Origin: an uncultured Bacilli bacterium
GTDB taxonomy: Bacteria > Bacillota_I > Bacilli_A > RF39 > UBA660
Reading direction: 5' to 3'
Assembly: GCA_910588195.1 (NCBI GenBank)
Contig: CAJUPN010000001.1
Location: forward strand, 211,343 to 275,342
DNA: 64,000 bases
Part shown: piece after piece, positions 4,141 to 37,225 of the stretch
Layout of the letters: each line of letters starts with the position of its first letter
How positions within the stretch are numbered: position 1 is the first letter of the stretch
Notes under the pieces: generated by a model
Databases searched by the model: none
Seen by the model: the letters and a program-made list of their open reading frames with translations, nothing else
Told to the model about the DNA's origin: nothing
Made by a program: the position numbers and the translations under genes

Positions 4141-6549
4141 ATGGCAGAGTTACAAGAACACTTTAAGATGGATTACAAAAGAATATTACCTAATGCTAAT
4201 CATGTTATTAAAGGTAATAAATATCGTATTACTGTGTTATCTGATTTGTTAGTTAGACTTGAGTATTCAGAAACTGGTGCATTTGAAGATAGACCAACTG
4301 AACTTGTGATGAATAGAAAGTTTCCTGTAGCTAATTTTGAAAAAAAAGAGGATAATAAATTCCTTACTATTAAAACTTCTTATTTTACTTTAACTTATCA
4401 AAAAGAGATGCCTTTTATTGGGTCAAAAGTATCTCCAGATCAATATTTAAGAATTGATTTAAATGGTACTGATAAGTTTTGGTATTTTAATCATCCAGAA
4501 GTTAGAAATTTTGGTGGGACATCATTTTCTTTAGATGGAGCTGATGGTCATGCTAAATATGGAAAGGGTCTTTATAGTACTGATGGTTTTGTTTCTCTAG
4601 ATGATGCCAATACTTTAATATTTAATGAAGATGGAACTTTAGGGAAAAGAAGTGACAAGAGAGTAGACACTTATGTATTTATGTATAAGCGTGATTTTGG
4701 TGCTTGTCTAAGAGATTACTTTACTTTAACTGAGTATCCACCGTTAATTCCAAGATATTCTTTGGGTGTGTGGTGGAATAGAAATATTTTATATGATTCT
4801 AAAGAGATTGAGAGATTGGTTTATAAATTTAATAAAAACAGGGTCCCTTTATCAATTATTATGTTGGGAGATAAATGGCATAGACAAATGAGTAAGATGT
4901 CCTCTGGTTTATCATTTGATGAAAAATTATTTAAAAGACCGAAAAGAATGACCGATTTTTTACATAGTAAAAATATTCGTTTAGTTGTTAAAGTTAATCC
5001 TTTAGAAGGAATAAGTAAAGATGAGGATTATTTTTTACCATTTAAAAATGCGTCAGGTTTAGAAGGGGATATAAAGTTGCCTTTCAATGTCTTTAATAAA
5101 AATGTCTTAAGTGCCTATTTTGATTATTTAATTCATCCTCTTATGAATTATGGAGTGGATTTCTTTTGGATAGATTATGATAACATTAATGATCGAACTA
5201 ACTTAAGAGCACTTACACATTATCATTTTAATGATTTTAAACAGATAACTAATCGTCGCGGAATAACTCTTGCACGAAATGCTTTAATAGCAGCTCATAG
5301 ATATCCTATTCATTATACTGGGGAAACTCTAGTAAGTTGGAAGAATTTAGAGTTACTACCAACATATAATTCTACAGCATCAAATTTAGGATTATCTTGG
5401 ATTAGTAATGATATAGGCGGTTATACTGATGGTATTGAAGATGGGGAGTTATATTCAAGGTTTGTTCAATTTGGTTGTTTTTCTCCTATTTTGCGTCTTT
5501 CTGCTGATGAAGGAAGATATTATAAAAGAGAGCCTTGGAAATGGGATATTACAACTCAATCTGTCGTAAGTCAATATTTACGATTAAGACACGCGTTAAT
5601 ACCATATCTTTATAGTGAAGCTTTTAGATATACTAAAACTGGACTTCCACTTGTACAACCTTTGTATTATCGTTACCCAGAAATTTATGATGAACCATTA
5701 TATAAATCAGAATATTATTTTGGATCTTCTTTATTTGTTGCTCCTATTACAACAAAAAGAGATAACTTAATGGATAGAACAATTTTAAAGTTATTTTTAC
5801 CTGATGGAGTATGGTATGACTTTACAACTGGTAAAAGGTATGCTGGTGGTAAAAGATATACTACATTTTATAAACAAGAAGATTATCCAGTATTTGCTAA
5901 AGCAGGGACAATTATTCCCATGGCAATACTTGATGAAAGAAATATAAATGATACGAACCCTCCTAAAGCTATGGAAATTCAAATATTTCCAGGGGAGAGT
6001 AATACTTATGAATTATATGAAGATGATGGAATATCTTCTCTTTATGAAAAAGGCTTTTTTATAGTTTCGGATATTGATTATACATATCAAAAAAATAATT
6101 ATACTGTTACTATTAGACCTGTTGCTGGTAAGAGTGGAATAATTCCGCCTCATCGTGCTTATCGAATTAGATTTAGAAATGTTAGAGAGCCAGAAGAAGT
6201 TCTTATTAGAGTTGGTAATGAAAAAGTTAAAGGAGCAGAAAGTTATGTTGATGATAATGATTTTGTAATTGAATTACCAGCTTTATCAACATTAAAACAA
6301 GTAACTATATCTGTTAAAGGAAAGAATTTAGAAATAGATGCAGTAAGATTAGTTAATGATGATATAGAATCAATTCTAAATGACTTACCTATTCAAACAA
6401 AGATTAAAAATGTTATTGGTGAAACACTTCTTAGTGATACTGATATAAAGCAAAAACGTATTGAAGTTCGTAAATTAAAGAAATTAGGAGTTCATCAAAA
6501 ATATATTAATTTATTCTTAAAACTCCTTGAATATTTAGCTGAAGTTTAG
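4141..6549 (+). CDS. glycoside hydrolase family 31 (alpha-glucosidase/alpha-xylosidase-like)
   Basis: About 800 aa. GH31-like catalytic region ...VDFFWIDYDN... is present, plus an N-terminal beta-sandwich and C-terminal domains. Start chosen at ATG 4141 after RBS agggtgaaggg; the ORF track begins earlier at 4087. Confidence 0.75.
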   Translation: MAELQEHFKMDYKRILPNANHVIKGNKYRITVLSDLLVRLEYSETGAFEDRPTELVMNRKFPVANFEKKEDNKFLTIKTSYFTLTYQKEMPFIGSKVSPDQYLRIDLNGTDKFWYFNHPEVRNFGGTSFSLDGADGHAKYGKGLYSTDGFVSLDDANTLIFNEDGTLGKRSDKRVDTYVFMYKRDFGACLRDYFTLTEYPPLIPRYSLGVWWNRNILYDSKEIERLVYKFNKNRVPLSIIMLGDKWHRQMSKMSSGLSFDEKLFKRPKRMTDFLHSKNIRLVVKVNPLEGISKDEDYFLPFKNASGLEGDIKLPFNVFNKNVLSAYFDYLIHPLMNYGVDFFWIDYDNINDRTNLRALTHYHFNDFKQITNRRGITLARNALIAAHRYPIHYTGETLVSWKNLELLPTYNSTASNLGLSWISNDIGGYTDGIEDGELYSRFVQFGCFSPILRLSADEGRYYKREPWKWDITTQSVVSQYLRLRHALIPYLYSEAFRYTKTGLPLVQPLYYRYPEIYDEPLYKSEYYFGSSLFVAPITTKRDNLMDRTILKLFLPDGVWYDFTTGKRYAGGKRYTTFYKQEDYPVFAKAGTIIPMAILDERNINDTNPPKAMEIQIFPGESNTYELYEDDGISSLYEKGFFIVSDIDYTYQKNNYTVTIRPVAGKSGIIPPHRAYRIRFRNVREPEEVLIRVGNEKVKGAESYVDDNDFVIELPALSTLKQVTISVKGKNLEIDAVRLVNDDIESILNDLPIQTKIKNVIGETLLSDTDIKQKRIEVRKLKKLGVHQKYINLFLKLLEYLAEV

Positions 6550-6559: not shown

Positions 6560-6750
6560 ATCAAGCAGAGGAAGAAAAAGTAGTAGATTAGGAGTCTATA
6601 AAAGAGAGTTACTGGTGGTGGAAAGTAATATAGATGAATAATTGAACTTGTTTTTGGATGTGTTAGGGTGATTTCTTTATTAATCATTAGAGTATAAATT
6701 AAGGTGGTACCACGAGTCTTTCGTCCTTTGGATGAAGGCTTTTTTTATTT
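6560..6750 (+). promoter_or_regulatory. T-box riboswitch leader (controls small membrane ORF + leuS)
   Basis: T-box consensus aaggtggtaccacgag at 6701-6716. An AGAGAG box lies upstream, and the terminator (tcgtcctttgg...gaaggcttttttt) overlaps the T-box as expected for an antiterminator/terminator switch. Confidence 0.75.
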
Positions 6751-6764
6751 AAGGAGGAAAGTAT

Positions 6765-7109
6765 ATGCAATATTTATTATGGTATTTAATAATTTTTTTG
6801 ATAATATTATTAGTCCTCTATATATTAGAGTTTTATATACCAGATAAGAAAAATACGTTAGGTAATAGTAAGGTATATAATTTTATATCTAAAAAGTTTA
6901 ATTTAAATATGGGTAAAAAAAGAGTTAGAATATTGAGTAAAATAATTGTTTTTGCTAATACTTTTATTTTATCAATACCAATAATGATGGTTTTATTTGT
7001 TAATTTAAATTATCTGGAAGTTTTAGGTATTTCACTTTTAATTTTTACGGTGTTAATATTAATAGTTTATAATTTTATAGGATATATATTGAAAAAGAAA
7101 GGTTGGTAA
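6765..7109 (+). CDS. small multi-pass membrane protein (3-4 TM), unknown function
   Basis: 114 aa with strong RBS aaggagg and hydrophobic segments. It lies between the T-box terminator and leuS, and its stop overlaps the leuS start region. Confidence 0.45.
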
Positions 7110-7111
7110 TT

Positions 7112-10100
7112 ATGGATTATAATTATAAAGAGATAGAAAAAAAATGGCAAAATTTTTGGGATAGTAATAAGACTTTTAAAACTGATATAAGGGATTTTTC
7201 TAAACCTAAGTTTTATGCGTTAGATATGTTTCCTTATCCTTCAGGAGTTGGATTACATGCAGGACATCCAGAAGGTTATACAGCAACAGATATTATATCA
7301 AGAATGAAAAGAATGCAAGGATATAATGTTTTACATCCAATGGGATATGATTCATTTGGACTTCCAGCTGAACAGTATGCTGTTCAAACAGGAAATCATC
7401 CTAGTAAATTTACAGATGAAAATATTGAAACATTTACTAAACAGTTAAAAGAATTAGGTTTTGATTATGATTGGGATCGTGTAGTTGCTACATCTGATCC
7501 AAGTTTTTATAAATGGACTCAATGGATATTTAAACAATTGTATAATGATGGTTATGCAAAGTATATTGATATGCCTGTTAATTGGTGTGAAGAGTTGGGA
7601 ACTGTTTTATCCAATGATGAAGTAATAGATGGTAAAAGTGAACGTGGAGGATATCCAGTAATTAGAAAAAATATGCGTCAATTATGTATTGATCAAGCAG
7701 CATTTGCAGAAAAGTTACTTGAGGGACTTGAAACTATTGACTGGCCAAATTCTACTAAAGAAATTCAAAAAAATTGGATTGGTAAGTCAATTGGTGCTCA
7801 TGTTGATTTTGTTGTGGATGGTTATTCTGATAAATTTACAGTTTTTACAACAAGATGTGATACTTTATTTGGTGCAACATACTGTGTCTTAGCACCAGAG
7901 CATGAATTAGTTGATAAAATTACTACTGAAGATAAACGTCAAGAAGTAGCAGATTATAAAGCTCAATGTGCTTTAAAAAATGATATGGAAAGAACTGAAT
8001 TAAATAAGGAAAAAACTGGTGTATTTACGGGTGCTTATGCAATTAATCCTGTTAATGATTCACGTATACCAATTTATATAAGCGATTATGTTTTATCTAC
8101 ATATGGAACTGGTGCTATTATGGCTGTACCAGCACATGATGATCGTGATTATGAATTTGCTAAAAAGTTTAATATACCAATAGTTCAAGTTTTAGCAAAA
8201 TCTTTTGTAGGTACAGGAGACTCACAAATTAGAGAAGATAAGCCAATGACTAATCGTAATGTAGTAAATGTTGTTATTAAACATCCTAGCGAAAATAAAT
8301 ATTTATGTGTTCATAATAAAAAGTTTAATTGGATAAACTTTGTTATGGGTGGAATTGAAGGAAATGAATCAGTAATTGAAGCTGGTATTAGAGAAGTAGT
8401 TGAAGAAACTGGTTATACTGATATTAAAATAGATAAAGAATTAGAATTTATTTACTTTGATAATTTCTATGCAGCTCATAAAGATGTTAATCGTCATATT
8501 ACTTGTCATACGATTGTTGGACATTTAAATAGTTTAGAACAAGTAAATATAAGTGATGAAGAAAAAGCTTTAGCTGATTACTTATGGATTCAGGAAAATG
8601 AATTAATAGACTCTTTAACAACGGAAGCTCACAAGTATGATGCTAGACGTGTACTTAACGGAGAAGGTGCAATGACTGAAGATGGTGTACATATTAATTC
8701 TTGTACTCCATTACAAGTTACTGGAACACCACATGAAAATGAATTTAAAAAGAATTCAATTGTCGCTATTGTTTATGATGAAAAAAATGATAAGTATTTA
8801 ACAATAAATTGGAAAGATAAAGGTGGACGTTTATTTATTGGTGGATCTATTAATGACGGAGAAACTCCACTTGAATGTGCTTTAAGAGAAGTAGCCGAAG
8901 AGACTGGTTATAAAAATTTAGAATTTATTTCTGAACTTCCAAAAATAAATCATCATTATTATGCTTTTAATAAGGATAAATATTTTAATATAATATCGAC
9001 TGGTTTTTTATTTAAATTAGTAGATGATGAAAAAGGTTCTCAAAATTTAGATGATGATGAAGAATTTAGTGTTGAATGGGTTTCAAAAGAAGTTATCGAG
9101 TCAGAAATAAAAGATGAATTACATATAGAAACTTATAAGCATTCTAAAGCAATAGATAAGATAGATATTTTAGATTTAAATGATTTATTAAAGAGTGAAG
9201 CTATTGAAAAAACAATATCTTGGTTAGAAGAGCATGGTAAAGGAACTAAAAAAGTTAATTATAAAATGCGTGAATGGATATTTGCAAGACAAAGATATTG
9301 GGGGGAGCCTGTACCAATCGTTCATATGGAGGATGGATCAGACTATATTTTAGAAGATCAAGAATTGCCACTTTGTTTACCAGAACTTGATGATTATAAG
9401 GGACATATTGGACTTGCTCCTCTTGAGAATGCCAGTGAATGGAAAAAATATGAGAAAAATGGTGTCAAAGGAGTTAGAGAAACTTCTACAATGCCAGGGA
9501 GTGCAGGATCTAGTTGGTATTTCTTAAGATATATTGATCCTAAAAATGATAACGCTTTTGCAGATCAAGAGTTATTAAAACATTGGATGCCAGTGGATTT
9601 ATATGTTGGTGGACCAGAACACGCAGTTGGACATTTAATGTATTCTAGAATTTGGAATCGTTATCTTTATGATAAAGGATTATCTCCTGTTGCTGAACCA
9701 TTTAAGAAGTTAGTTCATCAAGGAATGATTTTAGGAGAAAATGGAATAAAGATGGGTAAGAGATTCCCTAAATATGTTATTAATCCATCGGATATTATCC
9801 GGGATTATGGAGCAGATACTTTAAGACTTTATGAAATGTTCATGGGACCGCTTGAAGCTTCTAAGCCTTGGAGTCCAACAGGTGTTGAAGGGGCTAAAAA
9901 GTTTTTAGATCGTATTTGGAGATTATATGCTGATGAAAATAGAATATCTGATAGTGAGAATAAAAATTTAGAAAAAGTTTATCATGCTACTGTTAAAAAG
10001 GTAACTTCTGATTATGAGGCATTAGCATTTAATACAGCAATAAGTCAATTAATGGTATTTATTAATGCTGTATATAAAGAGGATGTATTCCCAAGAGAGT

Positions 10101-10429
10101 ATGCAGAAGGTTTCATAAAATTACTTAATCCAATTGCTCCACATATTACAGAAGAATTATGGAGTACTGTTTTAGGACATGATGATACAATTGCATTTGA
10201 ATCTTGGCCAAAGTTTGATGAGTCTAAAATAGTTGAAGACTTCTTAACTATTGGAGTACAAGTTAATGGTAAATTAAGAGGAACTATAACTGTACCAGTT
10301 GATAGTACAGAAGATCAAATTAAAGAATCAGCATTTGAAGAAGAAAATGTAAAAAGACACACTGATGGAAAAGAAATAGTAAAAGTAATAGTAATTAAAG
10401 GAAAAATAGTTAATATCGTTATAAAATAA
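7112..10429 (+). CDS. leuS: leucyl-tRNA synthetase with ~280-aa insertion carrying two Nudix hydrolase motifs
   Basis: Class I aaRS signatures are present: HAGHPEGY (HIGH), a KMGKR (KMSKS-type) loop, and an editing domain ([24 protein letters not shown]). Two perfect Nudix boxes are inserted: [23 protein letters not shown] and [24 protein letters not shown]. Length is 1105-1108 aa versus about 800-860 for typical bacterial LeuRS. Confidence 0.9.
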
Positions 10430-13917: not shown

Positions 13918-14011
13918 TTTTTTTTAAGTGTTGTTATATAATATCTGATAAATTTGTTAGGAAATATTATGTAGAGAATAAAAATTTGATTATATTAGAG
14001 GGGTAGTTTTT

Positions 14012-14467
14012 ATGGAAAGAATTAAACTTTCATCATTTGAATTAGAAGAATATGATAGTTGTAATTCTGATCATCAGGAATATACAAAATATTTTGAAGA
14101 TGATGAAGATTACAATGCATATATGGAACCATTTTGGTCTTTTGAAAATTCAGTTAATTATGACAGAAAAAATGGTAGGTATGCATCTATTTATTTTGCA
14201 TATCACAATGGTGTGTTAGTTGGTATGGTGGGGTTAATTTGGATATTTGACCTCCCAGAACTTGTAATTGGTATATTAAAAGAGCATAGAGGACATCATT
14301 ATTCAAAACTTTTGTATAGAGAATATGCAGAATATGTATTAAAAACTTATCAAGAATATAAGGCACTATATGTAAGTATTCAACCAGAGAATATACATTC
14401 AGTAGAAAATGCTTTGGCTGCTGGATTTAAACAAATTGATGAATATAAATATGTTAAGAGGGGATAA
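14012..14467 (+). CDS. putative GNAT-fold acetyltransferase
   Basis: 151 aa with a weak GNAT-like pattern (..VGMVGL..., conserved aromatic/Ala motif near the C-terminus). Low certainty. Confidence 0.4.
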   Translation: MERIKLSSFELEEYDSCNSDHQEYTKYFEDDEDYNAYMEPFWSFENSVNYDRKNGRYASIYFAYHNGVLVGMVGLIWIFDLPELVIGILKEHRGHHYSKLLYREYAEYVLKTYQEYKALYVSIQPENIHSVENALAAGFKQIDEYKYVKRG

Positions 14468-14562
14468 AATACTTTTACGATAAAAAAGATTTATTCATTT
14501 AGGTAAATACAATTCTTTCTTGTATTTTGTGATATAATATAAACGTTTTTGGTGGGGTATAT

Positions 14563-14919
14563 ATGAAGAAACTATTAGAATATGATTTTTTAATGAAAGA
14601 TGTCTTTTATAAATGCTGGCATATTTTAGAGTATATTGATAAACATCCTAACATGAGTGAACTTGATAGAGAAGCTATCAAAGCAACTATCATGGATGCC
14701 TTAGTATATAAAGATTTAATTGAAGCAGAAAAACAATCTTTAGACTTAGACAATATGTGCATAAGAGAAGATTTAGAACATTATAAATATGAATCACATC
14801 CCAATGTATGTGGTATTCCACAATGGATGAAAGAAGAATTTAGATATAAATGTCTTTGCATTACCGGAGGATGTCCCATATCTGTTTTTTTAGCTAAACC
14901 ACCTAGTAAATATTTATGA
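14563..14919 (+). CDS. hypothetical Cys-containing protein
   Basis: 118-aa ORF with own RBS ggtgggg. No motif recognised. Confidence 0.4.
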   Translation: MKKLLEYDFLMKDVFYKCWHILEYIDKHPNMSELDREAIKATIMDALVYKDLIEAEKQSLDLDNMCIREDLEHYKYESHPNVCGIPQWMKEEFRYKCLCITGGCPISVFLAKPPSKYL

Positions 14920-15022
14920 TCCAAATACAGCTGTTAGTTCTATTTTCCCTGATGCCACATTCTATAATGTCTTTTATAATTCTCCTACTAGGGGAGTAAG
15001 GATTGATAGTAAAAGGCCATTT

Positions 15023-15424
15023 GTGGAAGTCAAAATAGATGGTGTATTATATTTAATTGATACTATAACTAAAAGGATATTTAAAAGTAGTTATTTTAAA
15101 GAAAACTATGGCTTTGAAATTGTAGATGAAGCAAGAGTCAGCGAATTGACTGGTAAAGAACTAGAAATTTATAAAGAACATACATCAATTACTAAAAGTT
15201 ATGATGACACCATTCCCTTTATAGAAATGACTATTCCAGCCTTAACAAATAATCCAGAACAAGCAGAAATGATATATGAATTTGAAAAGTCCCGTTCCAT
15301 TTATTCAGAATATTTTGAAGAAGCTAGAAGGTTCTTACAATTAGTTTCTGGACAAATAAATCCTGAAGAAATGAAAAAGTATGGTAAAGAGAGAGATGAA
15401 AGAAGGAAGAACTATAAATTTTAG
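15023..15424 (+). CDS. hypothetical protein
   Basis: 133-aa ORF, Lys/Glu-rich. No motif recognised. Confidence 0.4.
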   Translation: MEVKIDGVLYLIDTITKRIFKSSYFKENYGFEIVDEARVSELTGKELEIYKEHTSITKSYDDTIPFIEMTIPALTNNPEQAEMIYEFEKSRSIYSEYFEEARRFLQLVSGQINPEEMKKYGKERDERRKNYKF

Positions 15425-15650
15425 AAAAAGAAAATTTATAGTTTTTTTCTTTGTAAGGGAAGATTTTACAAAAGATAAATAGGAAAATAGTCAACAAGAT
15501 AATATTTCGATATCAAAAAAAGATATTAAGTTTTTGAGATATTATTATTTAACTTTTGTTCATTTACTTTTTTGTGGAATATTCATCTTATTTGTGTTAT
15601 AATGGAACTACTGAGTCGTCTTTATTTCTTTTTTTGAAAGAAGGAAAAAA

Positions 15651-17285
15651 ATGAGTAAAATAAAAATGTTCGCTTTAGGTGGACTTAATGAAAGTGGTAA
15701 AAACACTTACGTTATTGAAATAGATAATAAAATATTTATTTTTGATTGTGGTTTAAAATATGCAACTGATAGTATGTATGGAATAGATTATATTATTCCT
15801 AATTATCAATATTTAATTGATAATAAAGATAGAATAGTTGGTGTATTTTTAACTCACGCCCATCTAGAAAATATGGGTGGAATATTTGATTTAGTTAGAG
15901 AGATACCTAAAATAAAAGTATATGCTACAAATTATACTAAACAATACCTTTTATTAGAAGGATTGAATGAAAAAAATATAGTTGAAATAAAGGCGCAGAA
16001 GAAGGTAAGTTTCAAAGATGTATCAATATTCCCAATAAATGTTAGTCATTCAGTACCAGATGCTGTAATGTATGTAATTAATACAAAAGATGGAGCTATT
16101 TGTTATACTGGAGACTTTATAATTGATCCAACAATGGATGGGGCTTATTCAATGGATTTAGGTAAAATAGCTTATGTTGGTAAACAAGGTGTTTTAATGC
16201 TAATGAGTGAGTCTTCATTTTCAGAGCATCAAGGACATACTAGTCCAAATCACCGTTTAACAGGATGGTTTAAAGATATGATGAATCACAATGATGGAAG
16301 ATTGATTATTTCTATTCTTCCAATTCATTTACATACCATTCAAGAAGTAATAGATGCTGCTAATAATATGCATCGTCGTATTGTTATAATGGGAAAAAAA
16401 TTACAAAATATTGTTAATATGGCTTTAAAAAATGGTTATTTATTTGATGATAAAAAAATAATAGGTGATTTATCAGATTTAGATAGTAAAAATTGTATAT
16501 GTTTAATTTGTGATGATCGTGAGAAACCTTATCGAGCAGTGGAAAGAATTGTTTATGGGAATGATAAATTCATTAAATTAAAGACAAGTGATACTTTTGT
16601 TTTTGCTGAACCAAACTATGATGCTAATGAAAAACTTTTAGTTTCAATTCAAAATGATATCGCGATGCTTGGGGCAAAAAGTTTTACCGTTCCAAAAGAG
16701 AAAACAATTTTACAGCACGCTTCGCAAGAAGACTTAATGATAATGTTAAATCTTGTTAATCCTAAGTATTATATGCCTGTTAAGGGAGAATATCGTTTGA
16801 TGGTTAATAATGCTGATTTAGCAACATCTTTAGGAATACCTGCAAGTAATATAATTTTAAAACAAAATGGTGATGTAGTTTCTTTTGTTGATGGTGTTTT
16901 AGAAAATAAGTTTGAAACTATTAAAGTTGAAGATGTTTTAATTGATGGTAAGTCAAGTGATGATGTTGGTGAACTTGTTATAAAAGACCGTGAAATGTTG
17001 GGGGAAAATGGTATTATGTTAATTTCCGCAACATTAGATAAGAAAAGCAAAAATGTATTGGTTGGTCCAGAAGTAACTACTAGAGGATTTATTTATGTTA
17101 AGGATTCCTTAGAGATGATAGAGGAAATTAAACGAATGAGTTTAGATATTATTGAAAAAAATACGACACCTAATTATGTGGATTATAATCAAATAAAAAA
17201 TGAGATTAGAGAAGAACTTAGTAAATATTTTTATCATGAAACTGAATGTAAGCCAATGATTATTGCTGTTATTCAAGAGGTATAA
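15651..17285 (+). CDS. rnj: ribonuclease J family protein with degenerate catalytic motif (RNase J2-like)
   Basis: N-terminus IFALGGLNESGKNTYVIEIDNKIFIFDCG is the RNase J hallmark. The beta-lactamase motif II reads THAHLEN instead of HGHEDH. The beta-CASP and C-terminal domains are present. Confidence 0.85.
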   Translation: MSKIKMFALGGLNESGKNTYVIEIDNKIFIFDCGLKYATDSMYGIDYIIPNYQYLIDNKDRIVGVFLTHAHLENMGGIFDLVREIPKIKVYATNYTKQYLLLEGLNEKNIVEIKAQKKVSFKDVSIFPINVSHSVPDAVMYVINTKDGAICYTGDFIIDPTMDGAYSMDLGKIAYVGKQGVLMLMSESSFSEHQGHTSPNHRLTGWFKDMMNHNDGRLIISILPIHLHTIQEVIDAANNMHRRIVIMGKKLQNIVNMALKNGYLFDDKKIIGDLSDLDSKNCICLICDDREKPYRAVERIVYGNDKFIKLKTSDTFVFAEPNYDANEKLLVSIQNDIAMLGAKSFTVPKEKTILQHASQEDLMIMLNLVNPKYYMPVKGEYRLMVNNADLATSLGIPASNIILKQNGDVVSFVDGVLENKFETIKVEDVLIDGKSSDDVGELVIKDREMLGENGIMLISATLDKKSKNVLVGPEVTTRGFIYVKDSLEMIEEIKRMSLDIIEKNTTPNYVDYNQIKNEIREELSKYFYHETECKPMIIAVIQEV

Positions 17286-17512
17286 GCTTGGGATACATTC
17301 TTAATAAGAAAAATGAAGAATTAGGTGAAGAGTTAAATGAAATACTTTCTTCTTTGGGGTATGAAATTGAAATTAAACCAGATGAAGAAACAGAAGAAAA
17401 AGAAAAAAAGAATGATGAAGAAGATGCTTAGGTATCTTTTTTGTTTTGTGAGTAATAAAAATGTGTTAGAATAATGGTGATACATAAAAAACTTTATAGT
17501 GAGGTGATAAAG

Positions 17513-18793
17513 ATGAAGGGCACTTATCCAGCTGATACATATGTTGTTGTAAATCAAACTGTATTAACAGAAAATGATAAGAAAACGCTTATTAGTCTTT
17601 ATGAACCAATAATTGGTCCAATTGCTGTAAGTTTGTATTTGACTCTTTGGAGTGATTTGGATAAGTTAGAGATTGTTAGTACTACTTATACACATCATCA
17701 TTTGATGACTATTTTAAAAAGTTCTCTAGAAATAATTGTAAAAGCTCGTCAATCTTTGGAAGCTTTAGGTTTGTTAAAAAGTTTTTTTAAAGAAGATGAA
17801 AATATAAGTGAATATATATATGAACTTTATTCGCCTATGGCACCAAGTGATTTTTTGAATCATCCTATTTTAGGTGTTTTGCTTTTAAATAATATTGGCG
17901 AAAAAGAATACAATAATCTCGTTCAATATTATAAAAAGCAAAGTATAAAAAAAGAAGGATTTACAGAAATAACTAGTAATATGAATGTGACATTTAAATC
18001 AGCAACTCAAAGAGAAGCTCTAAAAGAGGAAGTTAGAAAACAAACTCGTGCTGTTATTAATTTAAATGATGTTATAGATTTTGATTTATTAGAAATTTCT
18101 ATTCCCAAGGGAATGGTTAATGCAAAAACTTTTAATAAAAGGACAAAAGACTTAATTAATCAATTAGCTTATATTTATAATATTGATACGATAAAGATGA
18201 GTGAGATTTTAAGATTAGTTATAGATGAATATGGCCTTATCAATAAAGAAAAGTTAAGAGATGCTGCTAGGAAGAATTATGAATATAATCATAACGGTAG
18301 TTTACCTACAATAGTCTACAGAACTCAACCAGATCATTTAAAAACACCTGAGGGAGACACTTCAAATCGAGCTAAAATGATTTATGTTTTTGAAAATACG
18401 AAACCTTATGATTTTTTAAAAAGTAAAAATAAAGGAATAAAACCAACAGTAAGAGACTTAAAACTAATGGAACATTTGGCAGTAGATTTTAATTTGAACC
18501 CTGGGGTTATAAATGTTTTAATAGACTATGCTTTAAGAGTTAATGATGGAAAATTAAATCAAAAATATTTAGAGGCCATTGCTTCTACATGGAGTCGAAA
18601 AGGAATTAAGACAGTTCCAGAAGCTATGGAAGCTGCTAAAAAAGGACATAAAAGAGTAGTAAAAACAGTAAAAGAAGGTAGTCAAAAGACAGAAATCAAG
18701 GCTCCATCTTGGATGAATAAAGAAAATAGTCGTGAAGAGATGAGTGAAGAAGAACTAAAAGAACTTGAATCGATGTTTGAGGAGTTTAGGTGA
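17513..18793 (+). CDS. dnaB: replication initiation/membrane attachment protein DnaB (DnaD-like domains; helicase co-loader)
   Basis: About 427 aa. C-terminal DDBH2 motif YLEAIASTW (YxxxIxxxW) is present, and the gene is followed by an overlapping dnaI as in the B. subtilis dnaB-dnaI operon. Start chosen at ATG 17513 after RBS gtgaggtga; the ORF track starts at 17474. Confidence 0.7.
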   Translation: MKGTYPADTYVVVNQTVLTENDKKTLISLYEPIIGPIAVSLYLTLWSDLDKLEIVSTTYTHHHLMTILKSSLEIIVKARQSLEALGLLKSFFKEDENISEYIYELYSPMAPSDFLNHPILGVLLLNNIGEKEYNNLVQYYKKQSIKKEGFTEITSNMNVTFKSATQREALKEEVRKQTRAVINLNDVIDFDLLEISIPKGMVNAKTFNKRTKDLINQLAYIYNIDTIKMSEILRLVIDEYGLINKEKLRDAARKNYEYNHNGSLPTIVYRTQPDHLKTPEGDTSNRAKMIYVFENTKPYDFLKSKNKGIKPTVRDLKLMEHLAVDFNLNPGVINVLIDYALRVNDGKLNQKYLEAIASTWSRKGIKTVPEAMEAAKKGHKRVVKTVKEGSQKTEIKAPSWMNKENSREEMSEEELKELESMFEEFR

Positions 18794-30889: not shown

Positions 30890-31969
30890 ATGGATTTTAG
30901 ACAAATTGGTGAGTTTATTAAAAAATTAAGAAAAGAAAGAGGCGAATCTCAACAGCAGCTTGCTGATAGTATTAATATGGATCGTTCTAATCTTAGTAGG
31001 ATTGAATCGGGTAAAGTTATGATATCATTAGAAAATTTAGAATTAATTTCTACTCATTTTGATATATCGATTAATCAGATTTTATGTTCAGGAATTAAAA
31101 AGAGCTCAGAGAAAGAATCTTCTGTTAAGTATTTATATAAAAATAATTTAAGGATATCTAAGGTTAATAAGTTTTTGAAAATTTTAATTTTAACAGTTAT
31201 TTTTTTTCTTATTTTGTTTTTGAGTTATTTTTTTATTTTTTTTTATAATTCTGTAAAAGTATTTTCTATAGAATGTGATGAATATGATTTTATGGTGACT
31301 AGTGGTATCATAATGAAAACCAATGATAGAGTGTATCTATCTTTTACTCCTCTTTTTTTAGATGAAAATTCAATAAAAGATTATTCATTGCTATATAAGA
31401 GTAATGGAAAAAATAAGTATATTATGAGCAGCGATGTTATTCGTCCTATTGAGTTTACTGATACTTATAACTATCAAGAATATATAAATTTTCTTGATTT
31501 TCAAGAAATTATAGAAAACTTCTATTTTGAAATAAATTATTTGGATGGGAGTAGCAAAATTTATAAGTTAAATGTATCTAAAAATTATAGTAGTTCTAAA
31601 ATTTTTATAAACTATCAAGATAAAGATGAAAGGATTTTAGAAGACGAGTTATATGAAGAAAATGAAATAATAAAAAAAGTAACTGATAAATATTTTAATT
31701 TAGGTAAACCTCTATATATAAAATACGATAAAAAAGAATATGAAGTTTTTATTGGTGAAAATTTTGTTTCAGTAATTTACATGGAAGAATTAAACAAGAT
31801 TACTTTAAAATATATAGCACTTGATGGTGGAGATTTTTTTAAATATGTTAATGGTCAAAATAAATATGGTAAAAGTATAAATAGCGACAATTGTGATTTT
31901 GACTGTGATGATTTTTTAGTTGATTATAATTTATTTATGAAAGTTATTAGCAAAATTATAGAAAAATAG
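30890..31969 (+). CDS. membrane-anchored XRE-family transcriptional regulator with extracytoplasmic domain
   Basis: HTH_3 motif (ESQQQLADSINMDRSNLSRIESGK), one TM segment (FLKILILTVIFFLILFLSYFFIFFY) and a ~230-aa C-terminal domain. The ORF track starts at 30863; start chosen at the internal Met preceding the HTH. Confidence 0.6.
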   Translation: MDFRQIGEFIKKLRKERGESQQQLADSINMDRSNLSRIESGKVMISLENLELISTHFDISINQILCSGIKKSSEKESSVKYLYKNNLRISKVNKFLKILILTVIFFLILFLSYFFIFFYNSVKVFSIECDEYDFMVTSGIIMKTNDRVYLSFTPLFLDENSIKDYSLLYKSNGKNKYIMSSDVIRPIEFTDTYNYQEYINFLDFQEIIENFYFEINYLDGSSKIYKLNVSKNYSSSKIFINYQDKDERILEDELYEENEIIKKVTDKYFNLGKPLYIKYDKKEYEVFIGENFVSVIYMEELNKITLKYIALDGGDFFKYVNGQNKYGKSINSDNCDFDCDDFLVDYNLFMKVISKIIEK

Positions 31970-32113
31970 TTATTGTGTATAATTTGCACAACGAAAATCT
32001 TGAATGTGCATTAAATGCACATAAATTTTCATGTTTTATATGTTATTTTTTTAGTGTAGGAAGTTTACTTTTATAGTTTTTCTTACAGAAAAATGTGAAA
32101 GGAGGAAAATTGA

Positions 32114-32557
32114 ATGAAAATAATAAAGTATAGTTTCATGATGTTGGGAGTGGCTATTATTGCAAACATAGCATTAGTTCAAGCATTAACTAATCTTAAT
32201 CAGTTTGGACTTATTTATGGAACTGCGACAATTCCAGCTGGAAAGACTGTTCAATTAAATAACGATGTTCAAAAGACAGAGTTAGGTGTACAGTCTGTAA
32301 CTAATACGAGGACCTTTACTCCATTGACAGATCCTTGTCCAAAATGCAATATTGAAGTAAATTTATTACGTAAATTATCTTCGGGAAAATATGATAAAGT
32401 TGGAACAGTATTTGTCAAACAAGGGCAAACTGATTATTTTTTGTCTCAAAGTGTAAGTCAATCATTCGGAGAGTTTAATCTATCATTTAGAAGAGTTGAT
32501 GCAACTGCTCTTACAACTTATGTTGGCTTTGACTGGAGAGTTCAAGATTCTAAGTGA
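32114..32557 (+). CDS. small secreted protein (possible bacteriocin-like or immunity-associated)
   Basis: 147 aa with a Sec signal and AxA-type site (VQA). Beta-rich composition, two Cys (CPKC). RBS ggaggaaaat. Confidence 0.5.
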   Translation: MKIIKYSFMMLGVAIIANIALVQALTNLNQFGLIYGTATIPAGKTVQLNNDVQKTELGVQSVTNTRTFTPLTDPCPKCNIEVNLLRKLSSGKYDKVGTVFVKQGQTDYFLSQSVSQSFGEFNLSFRRVDATALTTYVGFDWRVQDSK

Positions 32558-32627
32558 TAATAACACTAAATACACAAAGAAGTTTTATACTTCTTTTGTG
32601 TTGATTAAAAGATATTGAGGTAAAAAT

Positions 32628-33554
32628 ATGAGAAAAATAAAAGATAAAATGTTTGTTGTTATGTTGAGTTTTTTTATAATATTTGCTTTTTTTGTTTCTT
32701 TTATGGGAATTAATGATGTTGTTGAACATGAAAAAGTTATGAAATTTTTGGAGGACGACCTTGTTCGTCAATGTCAAGAATTAGACAGAAATGTTGCTAG
32801 TGAAGAAAATTTGGATTTTTGTGATAAAGTTCTTGGGGATGATTATGAAAGATACAAGCGAACAGCATACGAAACTTATGATTATTATGTTTTGGAAATA
32901 GTTAGAAAATATTGCAATGAATTTGTACTTATATTGATTATTGTAATAGGAAGTACTTTTTATGTTACAAAATTTTTAAGAAGTCGTGTAATACTAAATG
33001 AGTTAGTTAGAAATAACTATAATGATGTTAAGAAAAAGTTGTTTTTTTCTTCTTGGAAATATTCTCTTTTAGTGTCTTTGATGCTTTTTATTATTTTTAT
33101 TATTATAATATTATTTGTTGGTAATATAGAACTTAATGTTTATCATTTATCAAATACAATATTTTCAAGTAACATTTTAGTATATTTTGGAGTTCTTTTG
33201 TTAAATGCTTTTATTTTAACTTTAATTTATACAAATATAAGTTTAATAGTTGCAAGAAAAGAGCATAATTATATTTTAGCAGTAATTAAATCATATATAC
33301 TTATAATTGGCATTGAAATTTTTTTTGAAGTGATTTTATATAATATTATATTTAAGTTATTTGGTTCATCATTTGGAGCATATTTTAATCTTCTAGCTGT
33401 CTATAATTATTCATATACAGATGAGAATTTATTAGTAATTTGGTTGTTAATAGCCATATTGATAATTACATTTGTTATTTTACATTATAGGTATAGAAAT
33501 AAAGAAAAGTTGGTAATTGATTGTGAAAAAAATGATAATAAAGAAGAGGATTAA
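32628..33554 (+). CDS. integral membrane protein
   Basis: 308 aa with 5-6 TM helices. Immediately upstream of the ABC ATPase. Confidence 0.5.
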   Translation: MRKIKDKMFVVMLSFFIIFAFFVSFMGINDVVEHEKVMKFLEDDLVRQCQELDRNVASEENLDFCDKVLGDDYERYKRTAYETYDYYVLEIVRKYCNEFVLILIIVIGSTFYVTKFLRSRVILNELVRNNYNDVKKKLFFSSWKYSLLVSLMLFIIFIIIILFVGNIELNVYHLSNTIFSSNILVYFGVLLLNAFILTLIYTNISLIVARKEHNYILAVIKSYILIIGIEIFFEVILYNIIFKLFGSSFGAYFNLLAVYNYSYTDENLLVIWLLIAILIITFVILHYRYRNKEKLVIDCEKNDNKEED

Positions 33555-33556
33555 TT

Positions 33557-34198
33557 ATGAAAATAGAATTAAAAAATGTATATAAAAGTTTTAATAAGAA
33601 TAAAGTTATTAAAAATGTTTCTATGACTTTAGAGGGTGGGAATATTTATGGCTTTTATGGCAGGAATGGAACAGGGAAAAGTGTGCTTCTAAAAATTATT
33701 GCTGGTTTATATGTTCCAACTAGTGGAGAAGTTATTATTGATGGTGTTGATATAAACAAAACTGGAGATTATCCTAAGAATATGCGAATTTTAATTGAAA
33801 AATCGGCTTTCTTTCCTGATATTTCGGGATTTGAGAATTTAAAACTTCTTGCAGATATAAATAAAGCAATAGATGAAGAAAAAATATTAGAAACCTTAGA
33901 AATTGTTAATTTAATTGGTGAAAAAAATAAAAAGTATTGTAAATATTCTTTAGGAATGAAACAAAAGCTTGGGATTGCGCAAGTAATTATGGAGAATCCT
34001 GATATTTTAATATTTGATGAACCTTTTAATGGAATAGAGCAAGTTACTGTAGATAAACTTACTAAATATCTTTTAAATGAGAAGAAAAAGGGAAAATTGA
34101 TAATTATTAGTACACACATTAAAGAAGATTTAATTAAATTATCTGATGAAATTTATTTGTTTGATAATGGGTTAATCAGTAAGGTTAAAAATGTTTAA
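33557..34198 (+). CDS. ABC transporter ATP-binding protein, LanF-like (E-loop variant)
   Basis: Walker A GRNGTGKS, signature YSLGMKQKLGIA and Walker B ILIFDEP are present. Where the Q-loop should be, the sequence is ..RILIEKSAFFPD.., with Glu replacing Gln as in LanFEG immunity transporters. Confidence 0.8.
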   Translation: MKIELKNVYKSFNKNKVIKNVSMTLEGGNIYGFYGRNGTGKSVLLKIIAGLYVPTSGEVIIDGVDINKTGDYPKNMRILIEKSAFFPDISGFENLKLLADINKAIDEEKILETLEIVNLIGEKNKKYCKYSLGMKQKLGIAQVIMENPDILIFDEPFNGIEQVTVDKLTKYLLNEKKKGKLIIISTHIKEDLIKLSDEIYLFDNGLISKVKNV

Positions 34199-34901
34199 AC
34201 AGGTTTATAATAGATGTAAATTTTACTTAAATTCATATGTTACTTTTGGAACAATATTTGTAATACTTTTTCTTTTGATTCTACCAACATTTGATTTTAA
34301 ATTATCTAATGGTTTTTTCTTTAATATTAGGTATGCCTCCCAAAATATGTTGGTTGTTGAGGGAATGTTACTTTTATATGTTTTTAATATATGGTCGTAT
34401 TTAAAGAAAAATAAAAACAACTTTTATCAAGCACATCGTTACGGAAATATTAGAGTATTAATAAAAAATAATATTTGTGATGTTATTTTCATAGGTTGGA
34501 TTCTAGAAACTGTCTTTTGGATTTTAAATATAACTGTAGCTACGATATTTAGTGATGGTTACTATTTGGGGGTATACCAGTTTTATAAAATAACAAATGT
34601 CATTTATTTAGTATATTTAGTTATATTAAGATATCTTATAATAAGTCTTATGTCTATAATTATTTATTTTATTTTTCATACAGGTAATAAAATATTAAAG
34701 ACAAGTTTATTTCTTGTAGTTGCATTTAACATTCTAGTTTTTCCGAATAGTTTTCCAATTTCTTTTGCAACGTTAGTCTTTGGGTATAAGTTTAAATATT
34801 TTGCAATTGAAATTATATATGCTATATTTTTAATAGTTTTTTATATAGTAGGATTAATATTAATTAAGAAAAAGTTTATAGACAAGAAAAGAGATTTGTA
34901 A
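34191..34901 (+). CDS. ABC-2-type permease (LanE/G-like)
   Basis: 236 aa with 6 predicted TM segments. Translationally coupled to the ATPase. Confidence 0.55.
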   Translation: MFKQVYNRCKFYLNSYVTFGTIFVILFLLILPTFDFKLSNGFFFNIRYASQNMLVVEGMLLLYVFNIWSYLKKNKNNFYQAHRYGNIRVLIKNNICDVIFIGWILETVFWILNITVATIFSDGYYLGVYQFYKITNVIYLVYLVILRYLIISLMSIIIYFIFHTGNKILKTSLFLVVAFNILVFPNSFPISFATLVFGYKFKYFAIEIIYAIFLIVFYIVGLILIKKKFIDKKRDL

Positions 34902-35551
34902 TGGGATATGAAATAAAAATGGCAGAAAAATCTTTATTTAAAACACTAGTAGTATTAATCTTTTATTTATTTGTACTTTTTTTTCATATATATTCTTTTT
35001 TATGTTTACCCAAAAACGATGTTGAAATATTTAATCAAGTCCTTAATTGTCTTTCTTATCCTATGTTTAAAGAATATTCTTTTACAGAAGAATTATTATA
35101 TGTTTTTAACAATGTATATTTTGTTTTATATTTTGCTATGTTTTATATATATGAATATATTCATATTCATGGAATAATTGCAACAAGATATGATAAAAAA
35201 AGATGGGTTACTCATAAATATGTAGTTGGAATTCTTTTTATTATTTTAATTAGTTTAGTACAGTACTTGTTAATTGCTTATTTGTTCAATTTTAAAATGC
35301 CACTAGATATGAAATATTATTTATATCCAGTTTTGTTTAAAATGTTAATTATGTCTATTTTGTATACTCTTTATAATTTCTTTAAAACAAATAAGATTGC
35401 TTTTTTTATCATTTTGATAATATCTTCTTTTTTATTACGTTATTTTAATCCTGTAATTGCAATTATTATTTTCGTAGCCTCATTTATTTTTAATTATGTG
35501 TTTTTTGACTTGAGAGGTTTTAAATATAATTTTATGCGATTAAATAGTTAA
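34901..35551 (+). CDS. ABC-2-type permease (LanE/G-like)
   Basis: 216 aa, 6 TM. Overlaps the stop of the upstream gene. Confidence 0.55.
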   Translation: MGYEIKMAEKSLFKTLVVLIFYLFVLFFHIYSFLCLPKNDVEIFNQVLNCLSYPMFKEYSFTEELLYVFNNVYFVLYFAMFYIYEYIHIHGIIATRYDKKRWVTHKYVVGILFIILISLVQYLLIAYLFNFKMPLDMKYYLYPVLFKMLIMSILYTLYNFFKTNKIAFFIILIISSFLLRYFNPVIAIIIFVASFIFNYVFFDLRGFKYNFMRLNS

Positions 35552-35623: not shown

Positions 35624-37027
35624 ATGAATTGTGGCAATTGCGGTAAACCATTATTTGCTGGGTCAACTATATGTCCTGTTTGTGGTGTCGATAATGCTAA
35701 TTTGGTGAATAATCAAAGTGTTAGTAACAATTCTATGGTTCCACCACAAGAACAAATATTAAATAATGGTGAATCACTAGTAAATGAAAGTGTTGTTAGT
35801 GATGCCAATACTTCAGTTGATAAGCTTGAGGTACTTGAGACTTTAGACAGTGGGGATATAAACGCGAATAATTCTTATCAAGAAGTTCCTCAAAGTTTAG
35901 AACAAGTTACTGAGAATGAGCCAACAAATTTAGTTGGTGAAAGTCAAAGTTTAGGAGCTACAGAGTATTTAGAAAGTAATGAAGAAATAGCACAAGATGA
36001 AGAGGAACCTAAAGTAGATATAACTGAAAATATGGCACCACCTACACTAAATGTTGAAGAAGAAAACTTAACTCAAGGGGCTGGTGAATTATCCAATGAA
36101 AACAGTGTTTCCACATATTCTGAAGAAGCATTAACAGAACAAAAACATGAAGAACAAGCGGAGCAGATAAGACAAGAGGAAAGAGTGGATATTGCTATAC
36201 CAACGGTTGGTGAAGTTTCTCAAGTAGCTCTTCCTTCTGATGGAACAGCTCCGGAGGTAAAAGAAAATACTGATACGGTTGGGGAAACAACAACTACTGG
36301 TCAGGAAGTTTTAGAAGAACCAAATAAAAAGAAAAAATTTAAAATAACTTTATCTTCAGGAAGTAAAAGTGTTCCTAAAACAATTATGATAATAGTAGCA
36401 ATTATATTTTTAGTTATTGGTGTACTTTTAGGTAAAATGTTTTTTTCTAAAAATTATTGTGCAACAACGAATAGCAGTAATCGAAATATTTTAAATAATA
36501 AAAAGATAAAATATGTTAGTGATGGCAAAAATAATATAACTAATATTTTAGGTGTTACTTATAAAATACCAGAACAGTATACTTATGATAAAAGAGAAAA
36601 TGGAGTTTTAATATATGGTGAAGGTGATACTTTTAGATTATATATTAAAACAGAGCAAGGTCTTTATTCTGATTTAACTGGTGCCAAAAATTCTATTAAG
36701 GCATCAATGGTAGAAAATAGTATAAATGTTTCTAATGTTAAAGAGTTAAAAGCTAATGATGTTGAGTTTTTAGTTTTTGAGACTACTACTAAATTAGTGA
36801 ATAGAATGATTGCCTTTGCTTCTGCTCCACAAGATCAAGTATATTATTTAGAAATTGTTAATACTAATAATAACTATGATTATGATGTTTTAGATGTAGC
36901 TGCTGATATATTAAAAAATGCTACTTATGAAGAAGTTAGTACAAATATGGAAAAGATAGATATAGAAGATATTTCTGAAGTGTCGATAAAAGCAGCTTTA
37001 GAATATAAAAATCTTGTTAAGAGATAA
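35624..37027 (+). CDS. zinc-ribbon membrane protein (N-terminal CxxC-x11-CxxC, acidic linker, TM, extracytoplasmic domain)
   Basis: Starts MNCGNCGKPLFAGSTICPVCG. Long acidic low-complexity linker, one TM (IMIIVAIIFLVIGVLLG) and a ~190-aa C-terminal domain. Confidence 0.5.
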   Translation: MNCGNCGKPLFAGSTICPVCGVDNANLVNNQSVSNNSMVPPQEQILNNGESLVNESVVSDANTSVDKLEVLETLDSGDINANNSYQEVPQSLEQVTENEPTNLVGESQSLGATEYLESNEEIAQDEEEPKVDITENMAPPTLNVEEENLTQGAGELSNENSVSTYSEEALTEQKHEEQAEQIRQEERVDIAIPTVGEVSQVALPSDGTAPEVKENTDTVGETTTTGQEVLEEPNKKKKFKITLSSGSKSVPKTIMIIVAIIFLVIGVLLGKMFFSKNYCATTNSSNRNILNNKKIKYVSDGKNNITNILGVTYKIPEQYTYDKRENGVLIYGEGDTFRLYIKTEQGLYSDLTGAKNSIKASMVENSINVSNVKELKANDVEFLVFETTTKLVNRMIAFASAPQDQVYYLEIVNTNNNYDYDVLDVAADILKNATYEEVSTNMEKIDIEDISEVSIKAALEYKNLVKR

Positions 37028-37033
37028 AATAGT

Positions 37034-37063
37034 TTGACAAGTTAGATAATTTGTTAGTATAAT
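37034..37063 (+). promoter_or_regulatory. sigma-A-like promoter TTGACA-18-TATAAT for the tyrS leader
   Basis: ttgaca at ~37034 and tataat at ~37058. Confidence 0.5.
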
Positions 37064-37064
37064 T

Positions 37065-37205
37065 ATTTTGTTGATGGAGATTAGGATTTACGACCCTAGG
37101 AGTCAAATCGTTATGTCGCGTTAAGATATTATAAGGTGATTTAAAGTCATGAATTAAGGTGGTACCACGGGTTTCTCGTCCTTAAGTTTCATGACTTTTT
37201 ATTTT
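37065..37205 (+). promoter_or_regulatory. T-box riboswitch leader (tyrS), UAC specifier candidate
   Basis: T-box aaggtggtaccacggg at 37155-37170, overlapping terminator (..gtttctcgtccttaagtttcatgacttttt). A candidate Tyr codon lies in gatttacgacc. Confidence 0.75.
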
Positions 37206-37225
37206 TATAGAAAAGAGGAGAATAG

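Follow-up and report, generated by a model that had tools for sequence, protein, structure and literature searches.

A conserved operon encoding an E-loop ABC ATPase, three predicted permeases and a putative secreted jelly-roll protein in uncultured gut Bacilli, with a possible role in envelope defence

The described systems closest to the locus analysed here are ATP-binding cassette (ABC) transporters of the LanFEG kind and of the CprABC type, the BcrR-BcrAB(D) system of Enterococcus, and the lactococcin 972 operon. NisFEG has been placed in type V of the ABC transporter fold classes (10.1101/2025.10.09.681468). Next to CprABC-type transporters, an extra protein acting outside the cell is sometimes encoded, such as the lipoprotein CD1348, and NsrE1/E2 of Streptococcus mutans represent a split E subunit, not a third permease (PMC5786555). 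BcrR is a membrane-bound one-component regulator with an N-terminal helix-turn-helix (HTH) domain that controls the adjacent resistance ABC operon (PMC10269533). Here we describe an operon in a 64,000-nucleotide stretch of DNA (the window) from an uncultured Bacilli bacterium (GenBank assembly GCA_910588195.1, contig CAJUPN010000001.1, positions 211,343 to 275,342 of the forward strand). It encodes a small protein with a putative signal peptide, three membrane proteins and an ABC ATPase with Glu in place of the Q-loop Gln (E-loop), a combination that we refer to as the module, and it lies directly downstream of a gene for an XRE-type regulator with a membrane anchor.

The operon consists of genes for a 147-amino acid (aa) protein (32114..32557), a 308-aa membrane protein that we call p308 (32628..33554), the 213-aa ATPase (33557..34198) and two further membrane proteins, permease 1 (236 aa, 34191..34901) and permease 2 (216 aa, 34901..35551). 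The initial annotation of this stretch, which was made from the sequence without database searches, had listed these genes and the upstream regulator gene (30890..31969), and all of them were present at those positions on the + strand. The p308 and ATPase genes are separated by 2 nt, the ATPase and permease 1 genes overlap by 8 nt, and the two permease genes overlap by 1 nt (ATGA-type). As the GC content of the window is only 27%, open reading frames (ORFs) of 150-370 codons are far beyond what is expected by chance. In a sister species (loci L004 and L024), all six genes occur in identical order, with 56-83% protein identity. Pfam matches among the six ORFs were confined to the HTH domain (HTH_3, 50 bits) and to the ATPase (ABC_tran, 107 bits). 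None of the three membrane proteins, nor the 147-aa protein, had a match in Pfam, NCBIfam or PADLOC, and a PADLOC scan returned generic HTH and ATPase matches only. The five genes form a real operon that is conserved in uncultured gut Bacilli, and the regulator lies outside the conserved core.

The ATPase carries a Walker A motif (G35-S42), a signature motif (Y130-SLGMKQ-136), a Walker B motif (D154-E155) and H187, and its Glu81 (codon 33797-33799) replaces the Q-loop Gln. HMMER paired the segment ...RILIEKSAFF... with ...LGLCPQHDILF... of ABCA3, which places Glu81 at the position of the Q-loop Gln. In a MAFFT alignment with nine relatives and LtnF, the lacticin 3147 immunity ATPase from plasmid pMRC01, Ile80-Glu81 was invariant and Glu81 fell on the corresponding Glu in LtnF. 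The window ATPase and LtnF also have the unusual signature YSLGMKQKL in common. Across module-type ATPases, the E-loop Glu was kept in 49 of 50 sequences, the remaining one having Asp. Both the motifs and the Glu at the Q-loop position had been recognised in the initial annotation, and both alignments bear out the position of the Glu.

We compared the ATPase with NCBIfam models and found that its best match was the LanF model TIGR03740, at 166.3 bits, with DrrA as the runner-up at 134 bits; the LptB model scored 101 bits. The window ATPase did not pass the TIGR03740 cut-off (309.75 bits). As a calibration, we scored the experimentally studied LtnF, which also remained below the cut-off, at 182.6 bits; thus TIGR03740 is a strict test for the gallidermin subgroup only. 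For all relatives tested, LanF was the top NCBIfam model (158-191 bits versus 134-141 bits for the runner-up, DrrA or GldA). These profile scores suggest that the window ATPase resembles LanF about as closely as does a genuine LanF from another subgroup. The E-loop had been taken as diagnostic of LanF immunity ATPases, and this claim did not hold, because the identical Glu is present throughout the module family and in uncharacterised Clostridium and Bacillus plasmid cassettes outside lantibiotic clusters, one of which is annotated as 'BcrA'. As judged from sequence, an E-loop in the nucleotide-binding domain (NBD) would be a necessary, not a sufficient, feature of LanFEG membership.

The most constant partner of the ATPase is p308. 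Hydropathy analysis revealed six hydrophobic segments with a loop of ~70 aa after the first, consistent with an N-terminus inside the cell, a first transmembrane (TM) helix, a helical outside loop of ~70 aa and five more TM helices. Among 46 p308 sequences, Cys49 was invariant and Cys65 was present in 43, both Cys lying in the outside loop. Invariant, too, were Arg128, located in the strongly conserved TM2-TM3 loop on the cytoplasmic side, and a Y-x-x-K-E motif at the C-terminus. We used AlphaFold2 (AF2) to predict the structure of p308 (predicted local distance difference test (pLDDT) 72.7), and the model matched type V (ABC-2) permeases, including PmtD, a subunit of the phenol-soluble modulin (PSM) exporter, as well as NosY, CcmB, Wzm, KpsM, TarG and LptF/G. 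The modelled protein shows the six-TM type V fold. The initial annotation had described a protein with five or six TM segments preceding the transporter cassette; six segments are present, and on the strength of the model p308 is a third ABC-2 (type V) permease rather than an accessory protein.

Permease 1 has six hydrophobic segments and an invariant Arg83 in its TM2-TM3 loop, and permease 2 has about six, with an invariant Arg96 in the equivalent loop. Their sizes match those of NisE/NisG and CprB/CprC (PMC5786555). Orthologues of permease 1 were found in L004, L005, L008, L013, L018 and many metagenome loci, and permease 2 is missing or shortened in some lineages. Gene order, protein sizes, hydrophobic segments and translational coupling thus resemble the LanE/LanG pattern, but no hidden Markov model (HMM) of those families matched. 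These features agree with the initial description of two coupled six-TM permeases, and the two proteins could not be assigned to LanE or LanG. We considered whether the three membrane proteins are paralogues of one another or of LtnE and rejected this, as hhalign found no similarity and the families stayed separate through four rounds of iterated HMM search across all collected loci. Since Arg128, Arg83 and Arg96 lie in equivalent loops, they are candidate contact partners for Glu81 of the ATPase.

The first gene of the operon, preceded by a ribosome-binding site recognised by its sequence (GAAAGGAGG, 32097-32105), encodes the 147-aa protein. Its N-terminus looks like a signal peptide with a cleavage region of the Ala-x-Ala type (...ALVQA|LTN), which would leave a mature protein of ~123 aa with a predicted isoelectric point (pI) of ~9. 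A profile search over 1.84 billion representatives identified a family of about 108 clusters, counted at 50% identity, all of ~130-160 aa and matched end to end. In 67 family members, Cys75, Cys78 and Arg127 were invariant, and Lys5, Ala24 (the -1 position), Lys54, Thr69, Pro74, Thr131, Thr135 and Trp141 were nearly so. The two Cys belong to an invariant T-D-P-C-x-x-C loop, which reads CPKC at residues 75-78 of the window protein. Mature family proteins are ~116 aa long, usually contain only these two Cys, and range in pI from 5.1 to 9.7 (median 8.4). The AF2 model was an all-beta jelly-roll beta-sandwich (pLDDT 81), and its nearest folds were receptor- or ligand-binding jelly-rolls: C-CPE, PirA, YPM, PliG and carbohydrate-binding modules. 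These results agree with the signal peptide-like N-terminus, beta-rich character and CPKC pair of the initial annotation.

Two identities had been offered for this protein, a bacteriocin of the lactococcin 972 kind and an immunity protein of the LanI type, and neither received a signal in HMM or fold searches. Lactococcin 972 gave no HMM match and Lcn972 was absent among the listed fold matches; LanI (NisI/SpaI) gave no family match, NisI and SpaI were absent among the listed fold matches, and there is no lipobox Cys. Pfam and NCBIfam returned no match for the window protein at E≤1, none of the 67 members belonged to a Pfam family, and the Protein Data Bank (PDB) held no sequence relative of the family. 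Its database name is "MAG: hypothetical protein [Bacilli bacterium]" only. From these profile searches, the protein founds its own undescribed family tied to the E-loop transporter.

We then analysed the distribution of the module. Beyond the window species and its sister species, homologues of permease 1 and of the 147-aa protein revealed it in further lineages (L005-7, L008, L013-15, L016-17 and L018-19), each with a different neighbourhood, in the order small secreted protein, ~300-aa membrane protein, ~212-aa ATPase, and membrane proteins of ~240-250 aa and ~165-215 aa. This arrangement, with one or two permease genes after the ATPase, is repeated on dozens of gut contigs from mouse, human and rumen, where its neighbours are usually housekeeping genes. 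With p308 as the seed, a scan of metagenomes yielded 59 loci, many of them labelled human gut; in the counts that follow, we considered non-redundant loci with enough flanking sequence. The ATPase gene directly followed p308 in 38 of 41 loci. A member of the small-protein family was encoded directly upstream in 26 of 40 loci and elsewhere in the locus in two, and was not detected in the other 12. In an assembly collection, the exact ATPase sequence was indexed in 1048 blocks, a mouse-gut sample among them, and exact copies of the ATPase and the secreted protein lie on hundreds to about 1000 contigs. This abundance and the setting among housekeeping genes fit an intrinsic resistance trait.

Variants of the module show which parts can be lost or exchanged. 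L063 truly lacks the small gene (5910-5968), which its sister L062 has, and in L039 the gene is reduced to a 41-codon C-terminal pseudogene remnant (5849-5974); the transporter is intact in both cases. L078 has an unrelated-looking 140-aa signal-peptide protein in place of the small gene, and in L078/79 the order is p308, permease 1, permease 2, ATPase. Some modules have one further permease only, for example that of L062, which is located between tlyA and rpsL-rpsG-fusA. In L008, an extra, orphan p308-type permease (6681-7726) lies directly upstream of the intact module and is followed by an apparent, decayed start of an ATPase gene. Between the window species and L004/L024, identity was 83% for the ATPase, 63-66% for the other module proteins and 56% for the regulator; TyrRS of the window and L024 shared 90%. 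The envelope-exposed parts thus evolve quickly.

In the plasmid collection, the closest ATPases showed 41-46% identity. A 10-kb mobilisable plasmid of Bacillus cereus, pH308197_10 (L022, CP001168), encodes an E-loop ATPase along with three membrane proteins and a 140-aa signal-peptide protein, and a Clostridium tyrobutyricum plasmid (L011, NZ_CP047468) has the same layout followed by a signal peptidase I gene; the ATPases of these two plasmids are 44-46% identical to that of the window. In Eubacterium eligens (L012), a related ATPase and several membrane proteins lie inside an agr quorum-sensing cluster, in which no small secreted protein was identified. In the C. tyrobutyricum cassette, the first of the membrane proteins shows weak homology to p308 (hhalign 72%, E 3e-5; hmmsearch against a small database, E 8e-7), and that of B. 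cereus fell narrowly below the Pfam ABC2_membrane_4 threshold, at 23.9 bits. The small plasmid proteins were rejected as homologues of the 147-aa family by hhalign and iterated search. By tblastn, neither p308 nor the 147-aa protein had a plasmid match, and p308 had no phage match. A role in phage defence and a mobile origin of the module itself were also considered and rejected, PADLOC having given generic matches only and a scan of viral contigs having found nothing.

We next examined the regulator and the promoter region. The regulator contains an HTH_3 domain at residues 19-71 (50 bits), one hydrophobic segment at ~105-127 and a further ~240 aa. An alternative upstream start exists at 30863, and the true start is probably M10, at 30890; the L004 orthologue, 56% identical and in the same position, aligns from M10. 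The combination of an XRE HTH, one TM helix and an outside domain had been anticipated, but the regulator is a lineage-specific neighbour, not a conserved component of the module. In L005, a regulator homologue (28% identical) is encoded 5.7 kb from the module and a stand-alone 72-aa XRE protein after it, and no adjacent copy was found in L008, L013 or L018. The L005 homologue lies beside genes for an extracytoplasmic function (ECF)-type sigma factor and a 279-aa protein that may be its anti-sigma factor (13923-17559, minus strand), which hints at a separate envelope-stress cluster near that module. In another assembly of the window species (L002, GCA_965645955.1; 3336-4413), the regulator gene was called in two pieces of 279 and 62 aa, which suggests a frameshift or stop, or an assembly error.

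The regulator gene is separated from the 147-aa gene by 144 bp, which contain two 17-bp TGTG-N9-CACA palindromes, TGTGTATAATTTGCACA (31974..31990) and TGTGCATTAAATGCACA (32005..32021), 31 bp apart. Their TGTG and CACA ends are conserved in L004 and L024, and the palindromes are unique within the window (palindrome 1 at 0 mismatches). Both are candidate operators. Palindrome 2 overlaps a possible -35 element, ATGCAC (32015-32020), which is separated by 18 nt from a possible -10 element, TATGTT (32039-32044); a promoter would thus be located here, as read from the sequence. A 'terminator-like' scan call at 32004-32022 was set aside, the site being palindrome 2. Between the putative promoter and the ribosome-binding site lies an inverted repeat, TGTAGGAAG-N15-TTTCTTACA (32055..32087), which is conserved in L004 and L024, and a similar one is present upstream of the L008 module (~7850-7880). 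Its folding as an RNA hairpin was no better than that of shuffled sequences (z -0.34), and it is therefore more likely to be a DNA site. The modules of L005, L013 and L018 do not have the palindromes, and thus regulation is lineage-specific. Like BcrR, the window regulator combines an XRE HTH with a membrane anchor and is encoded beside an ABC operon, and by this analogy it may bind the two palindromes next to its gene.

The neighbours of the module in the window are trmB, ytxH, tyrS and sufCDS. Of the 18 window ORFs of at least 380 aa, 17 were scanned with Pfam and contained no LanB, LanC, LanM or LanT domain, small precursor-peptide ORFs not being screened systematically; the eighteenth, SufS (39889-41082), has aminotransferase Pfam domains in an identical locus. 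This agrees with the initial annotation, which had seen no lantibiotic biosynthesis genes. The large ORFs that matched a family are unrelated or housekeeping genes, encoding GH31, LeuRS, RNase J, MurJ-like, GH3, FtsK, SerRS and hybrid kinase proteins, among others. No histidine kinase or response regulator adjoins the module in the window, L004-L008, L013-L019, L062 or L078.

Based on these findings, the ABC part of the module probably has a defensive role like that of LanFEG, CprABC or BcrAB, given the affinities of the NBD, the F-E-G arrangement of the genes and the rapid divergence of the parts exposed at the envelope. The wider proposal, which we put forward tentatively and at somewhat less than even strength, is that the whole module is an inducible envelope-defence ABC exporter of this kind with a secreted binding partner. 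Two copies of the E-loop ATPase per complex would power type V subunits paired from among p308, permease 1 and permease 2, and the complex would remove or dislodge an antimicrobial peptide or protein that targets the membrane or cell-wall precursors from the outer face of the membrane. The Sec-secreted jelly-roll protein would act as a LanI-like binding partner outside the cell, probably docking on the Cys-stabilised loop of p308. We favour this role for it since its modelled fold is a bare binding-type fold, since it is dispensable in some lineages, and since the module is chromosomal, vertically inherited and invariant within species. In the window species, the XRE regulator would sense an outside signal through its ~240-aa domain and switch the operon on from the two palindromes at the promoter. 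The earlier suggestion of an orphan immunity or detoxification transporter is partly supported, through the LanF-like NBD and the F-E-G layout, but the module is not a textbook lantibiotic-immunity cassette.

Several observations weigh against envelope defence by such a complex. We found no characterised LanFEG or Cpr precedent for three full-length permease genes per ATPase, as these appear from their sequences. Permeases 1 and 2, like p308, matched no Pfam or NCBIfam model at E≤5, neither ABC2_membrane nor TIGR03732 or TIGR03733, in contrast to the bona fide LtnE, for which both ABC2_membrane_2 and ABC2_membrane_4 of Pfam are matched. The LanI proteins described so far are either lipoproteins or membrane proteins; the 147-aa protein has an Ala-x-Ala-type site and no lipobox, and would therefore be released unless docked. 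The XRE regulator adjoins the module only in the window species and close relatives. Furthermore, the secreted-protein-first order, the hypervariability and the plasmid look-alikes fit a toxin-immunity system equally well.

Under that alternative, the main rival, which we consider unlikely but worth serious attention, the 147-aa protein would be a Sec-secreted antibacterial or a competitor- or host-binding effector, and the three-permease transporter would provide dedicated self-immunity to the producer, following the logic of the lactococcin 972 operon. The secreted gene opens the operon, with a strong ribosome-binding site in front of it, its product diverges faster than the ATPase (24-65% versus 59-83% identity), and L078 and the plasmid cassettes carry dissimilar secreted proteins in its place. 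In L063 and L039 the small gene is lost or decayed but the transporter is kept, which resembles orphan immunity, as does the orphan p308 copy of L008. Related ATPases occur with a small secreted protein on the B. cereus and C. tyrobutyricum plasmids, and with membrane proteins in the agr cluster of E. eligens, where no such protein was identified; the best fold matches PirA, YPM and C-CPE are parts of toxins. The module is, however, chromosomal, syntenic between species and set among housekeeping genes, not on phages or plasmids, and its homology with the plasmid cassettes is confined to the ATPase and a weak match of a single permease. Unlike strain-variable bacteriocin loci, the protein does not vary across about 1000 contigs of the window species; it is a ~116-aa jelly-roll without a recognisable lytic or pore-forming part, and its net charge varies widely across the family (pI 5.1-9.7). 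In its most far-reaching form, which we also consider unlikely, the module would define a new secreted-protein/ABC system of uncultured gut Bacilli, with the jelly-roll as a new kind of Sec-dependent bacteriocin or a host- or competitor-binding factor, the transporter serving in its immunity or handling and the p308 loop as the recognition site. If it were an effector, the Bacillus and Clostridium plasmid cassettes would be mobile versions with swapped effectors. An improbable third account is a housekeeping envelope machine that exports or extracts an endogenous lipid-linked or hydrophobic component, or works as a mechanotransmitter, with the jelly-roll as its outside acceptor or partner (compare LptB2FG-LptA/C and NosDFY). 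It would fit the matches of the p308 model to NosY, CcmB, Wzm, KpsM, TarG and LptF/G, the position of the module at conserved sites of the chromosome (close to murJ-like, trmB and ribosomal-protein genes) in several lineages whose gene neighbourhoods are compact, and the tight coupling of four transporter genes, as expected for a complex of fixed stoichiometry. Nevertheless, the ATPase is nearest to LanF-type NBDs (166 bits), not to Wzt, TagH, LptB (101 bits) or NosF; the secreted partner is dispensable in some lineages; the module proteins evolve far faster than housekeeping proteins; and the dedicated sensor-type regulator and operator-like sites of the window lineage suggest conditional expression.

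Overall, these results indicate that the E-loop marks a wider, largely unannotated clade of ABC exporters of gut Firmicutes and should not by itself lead to the annotation "lantibiotic immunity". With the module come four protein families, three of membrane proteins and one of secreted proteins, that no model of Pfam, NCBIfam or PADLOC covers, and we found no described counterpart for a dedicated secreted-protein family combined with three type V permease genes per ATPase. As the window species is very common in gut metagenomes, the module is a candidate means by which uncultured commensals may resist host or bacterial antimicrobial peptides, or attack competitors. Three predicted type V permease genes for one ATPase also pose a problem of subunit composition that suits structure prediction or cryo-electron microscopy (cryo-EM).

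Downstream of the module, a neighbouring gene (35624..37027, +) encodes a 467-aa protein with weak zinc-ribbon matches at its N-terminus, a long acidic low-complexity linker, one TM helix and an outside domain of ~190 aa. It has a 59% identical orthologue in L024 and adjoins the module only in close relatives, being absent after the module in L005, L008, L013, L018 and L062. The region upstream of tyrS (37034-37225) has a promoter that fits the sigma-70 consensus perfectly (TTGACA-18-TATAAT) and, after it, a short leader resembling a T-box (37068-37186; 50 bits, E 5e-9, below the Rfam gathering score of 93). Elsewhere in the window (7103-10429), a LeuRS ORF of 1108 aa has a NUDIX domain (~552-665) inserted within the synthetase.

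Finally, we compared the module with the known systems. It shares with LanFEG transporters (NisFEG, EpiFEG, NukFEG, LtnFE) the E-loop NBD, the YSLGMKQKL-type signature and LanF as the top NCBIfam model, the arrangement of an NBD gene followed by two unlike six-TM genes of ~215-250 aa with coupled translation, and the type V fold class, as far as p308 is modelled. It differs in that it lies outside a lantibiotic cluster, its NBD scores below the TIGR03740 cut-off, and its permeases match no MutE, MutG or Pfam ABC-2 model, whereas LtnE matches Pfam; in addition, it has a third full-length permease, whose long outside loop carries Cys residues, and a cognate secreted protein of a new family. CprABC-type systems (Clostridioides difficile CprABC, S. 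mutans LctFEG, NsrFE1E2G) likewise combine a chromosomal NBD with two different six-TM permeases and have no biosynthesis genes nearby. They are controlled by two-component systems, whereas the window module appears to be controlled by a membrane-anchored XRE protein and other lineages have no regulator or different ones, and no secreted jelly-roll partner is known there.

Compared by description only, BcrR-BcrAB(D) of Enterococcus resembles the locus in its membrane-bound HTH one-component regulator beside an ABC operon. BcrR is of the XRE type, with four TM helices, and is not known to have a large outside domain, while the window regulator has one TM helix and ~240 outside residues, and BcrB is a single permease. 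The lactococcin 972 operon resides on a small plasmid, like the look-alike cassettes, and it too begins with a Sec-secreted beta-rich protein, followed by membrane protein(s) and an ABC ATPase. However, the window ATPase reached only 95 bits with the L_ocin_972_ABC model (cut-off 254.85), and its membrane partners are ABC-2-like rather than a large immunity protein of the Lcn972 type. The plasmid cassettes of CP001168 and NZ_CP047468 combine a small signal-peptide protein, three membrane proteins of ~240-290 aa and an E-loop ATPase, in the gene order of the module variants L078/L079. They differ in being plasmid-borne, and their small proteins and second and third membrane proteins are without detectable similarity to those of the window.

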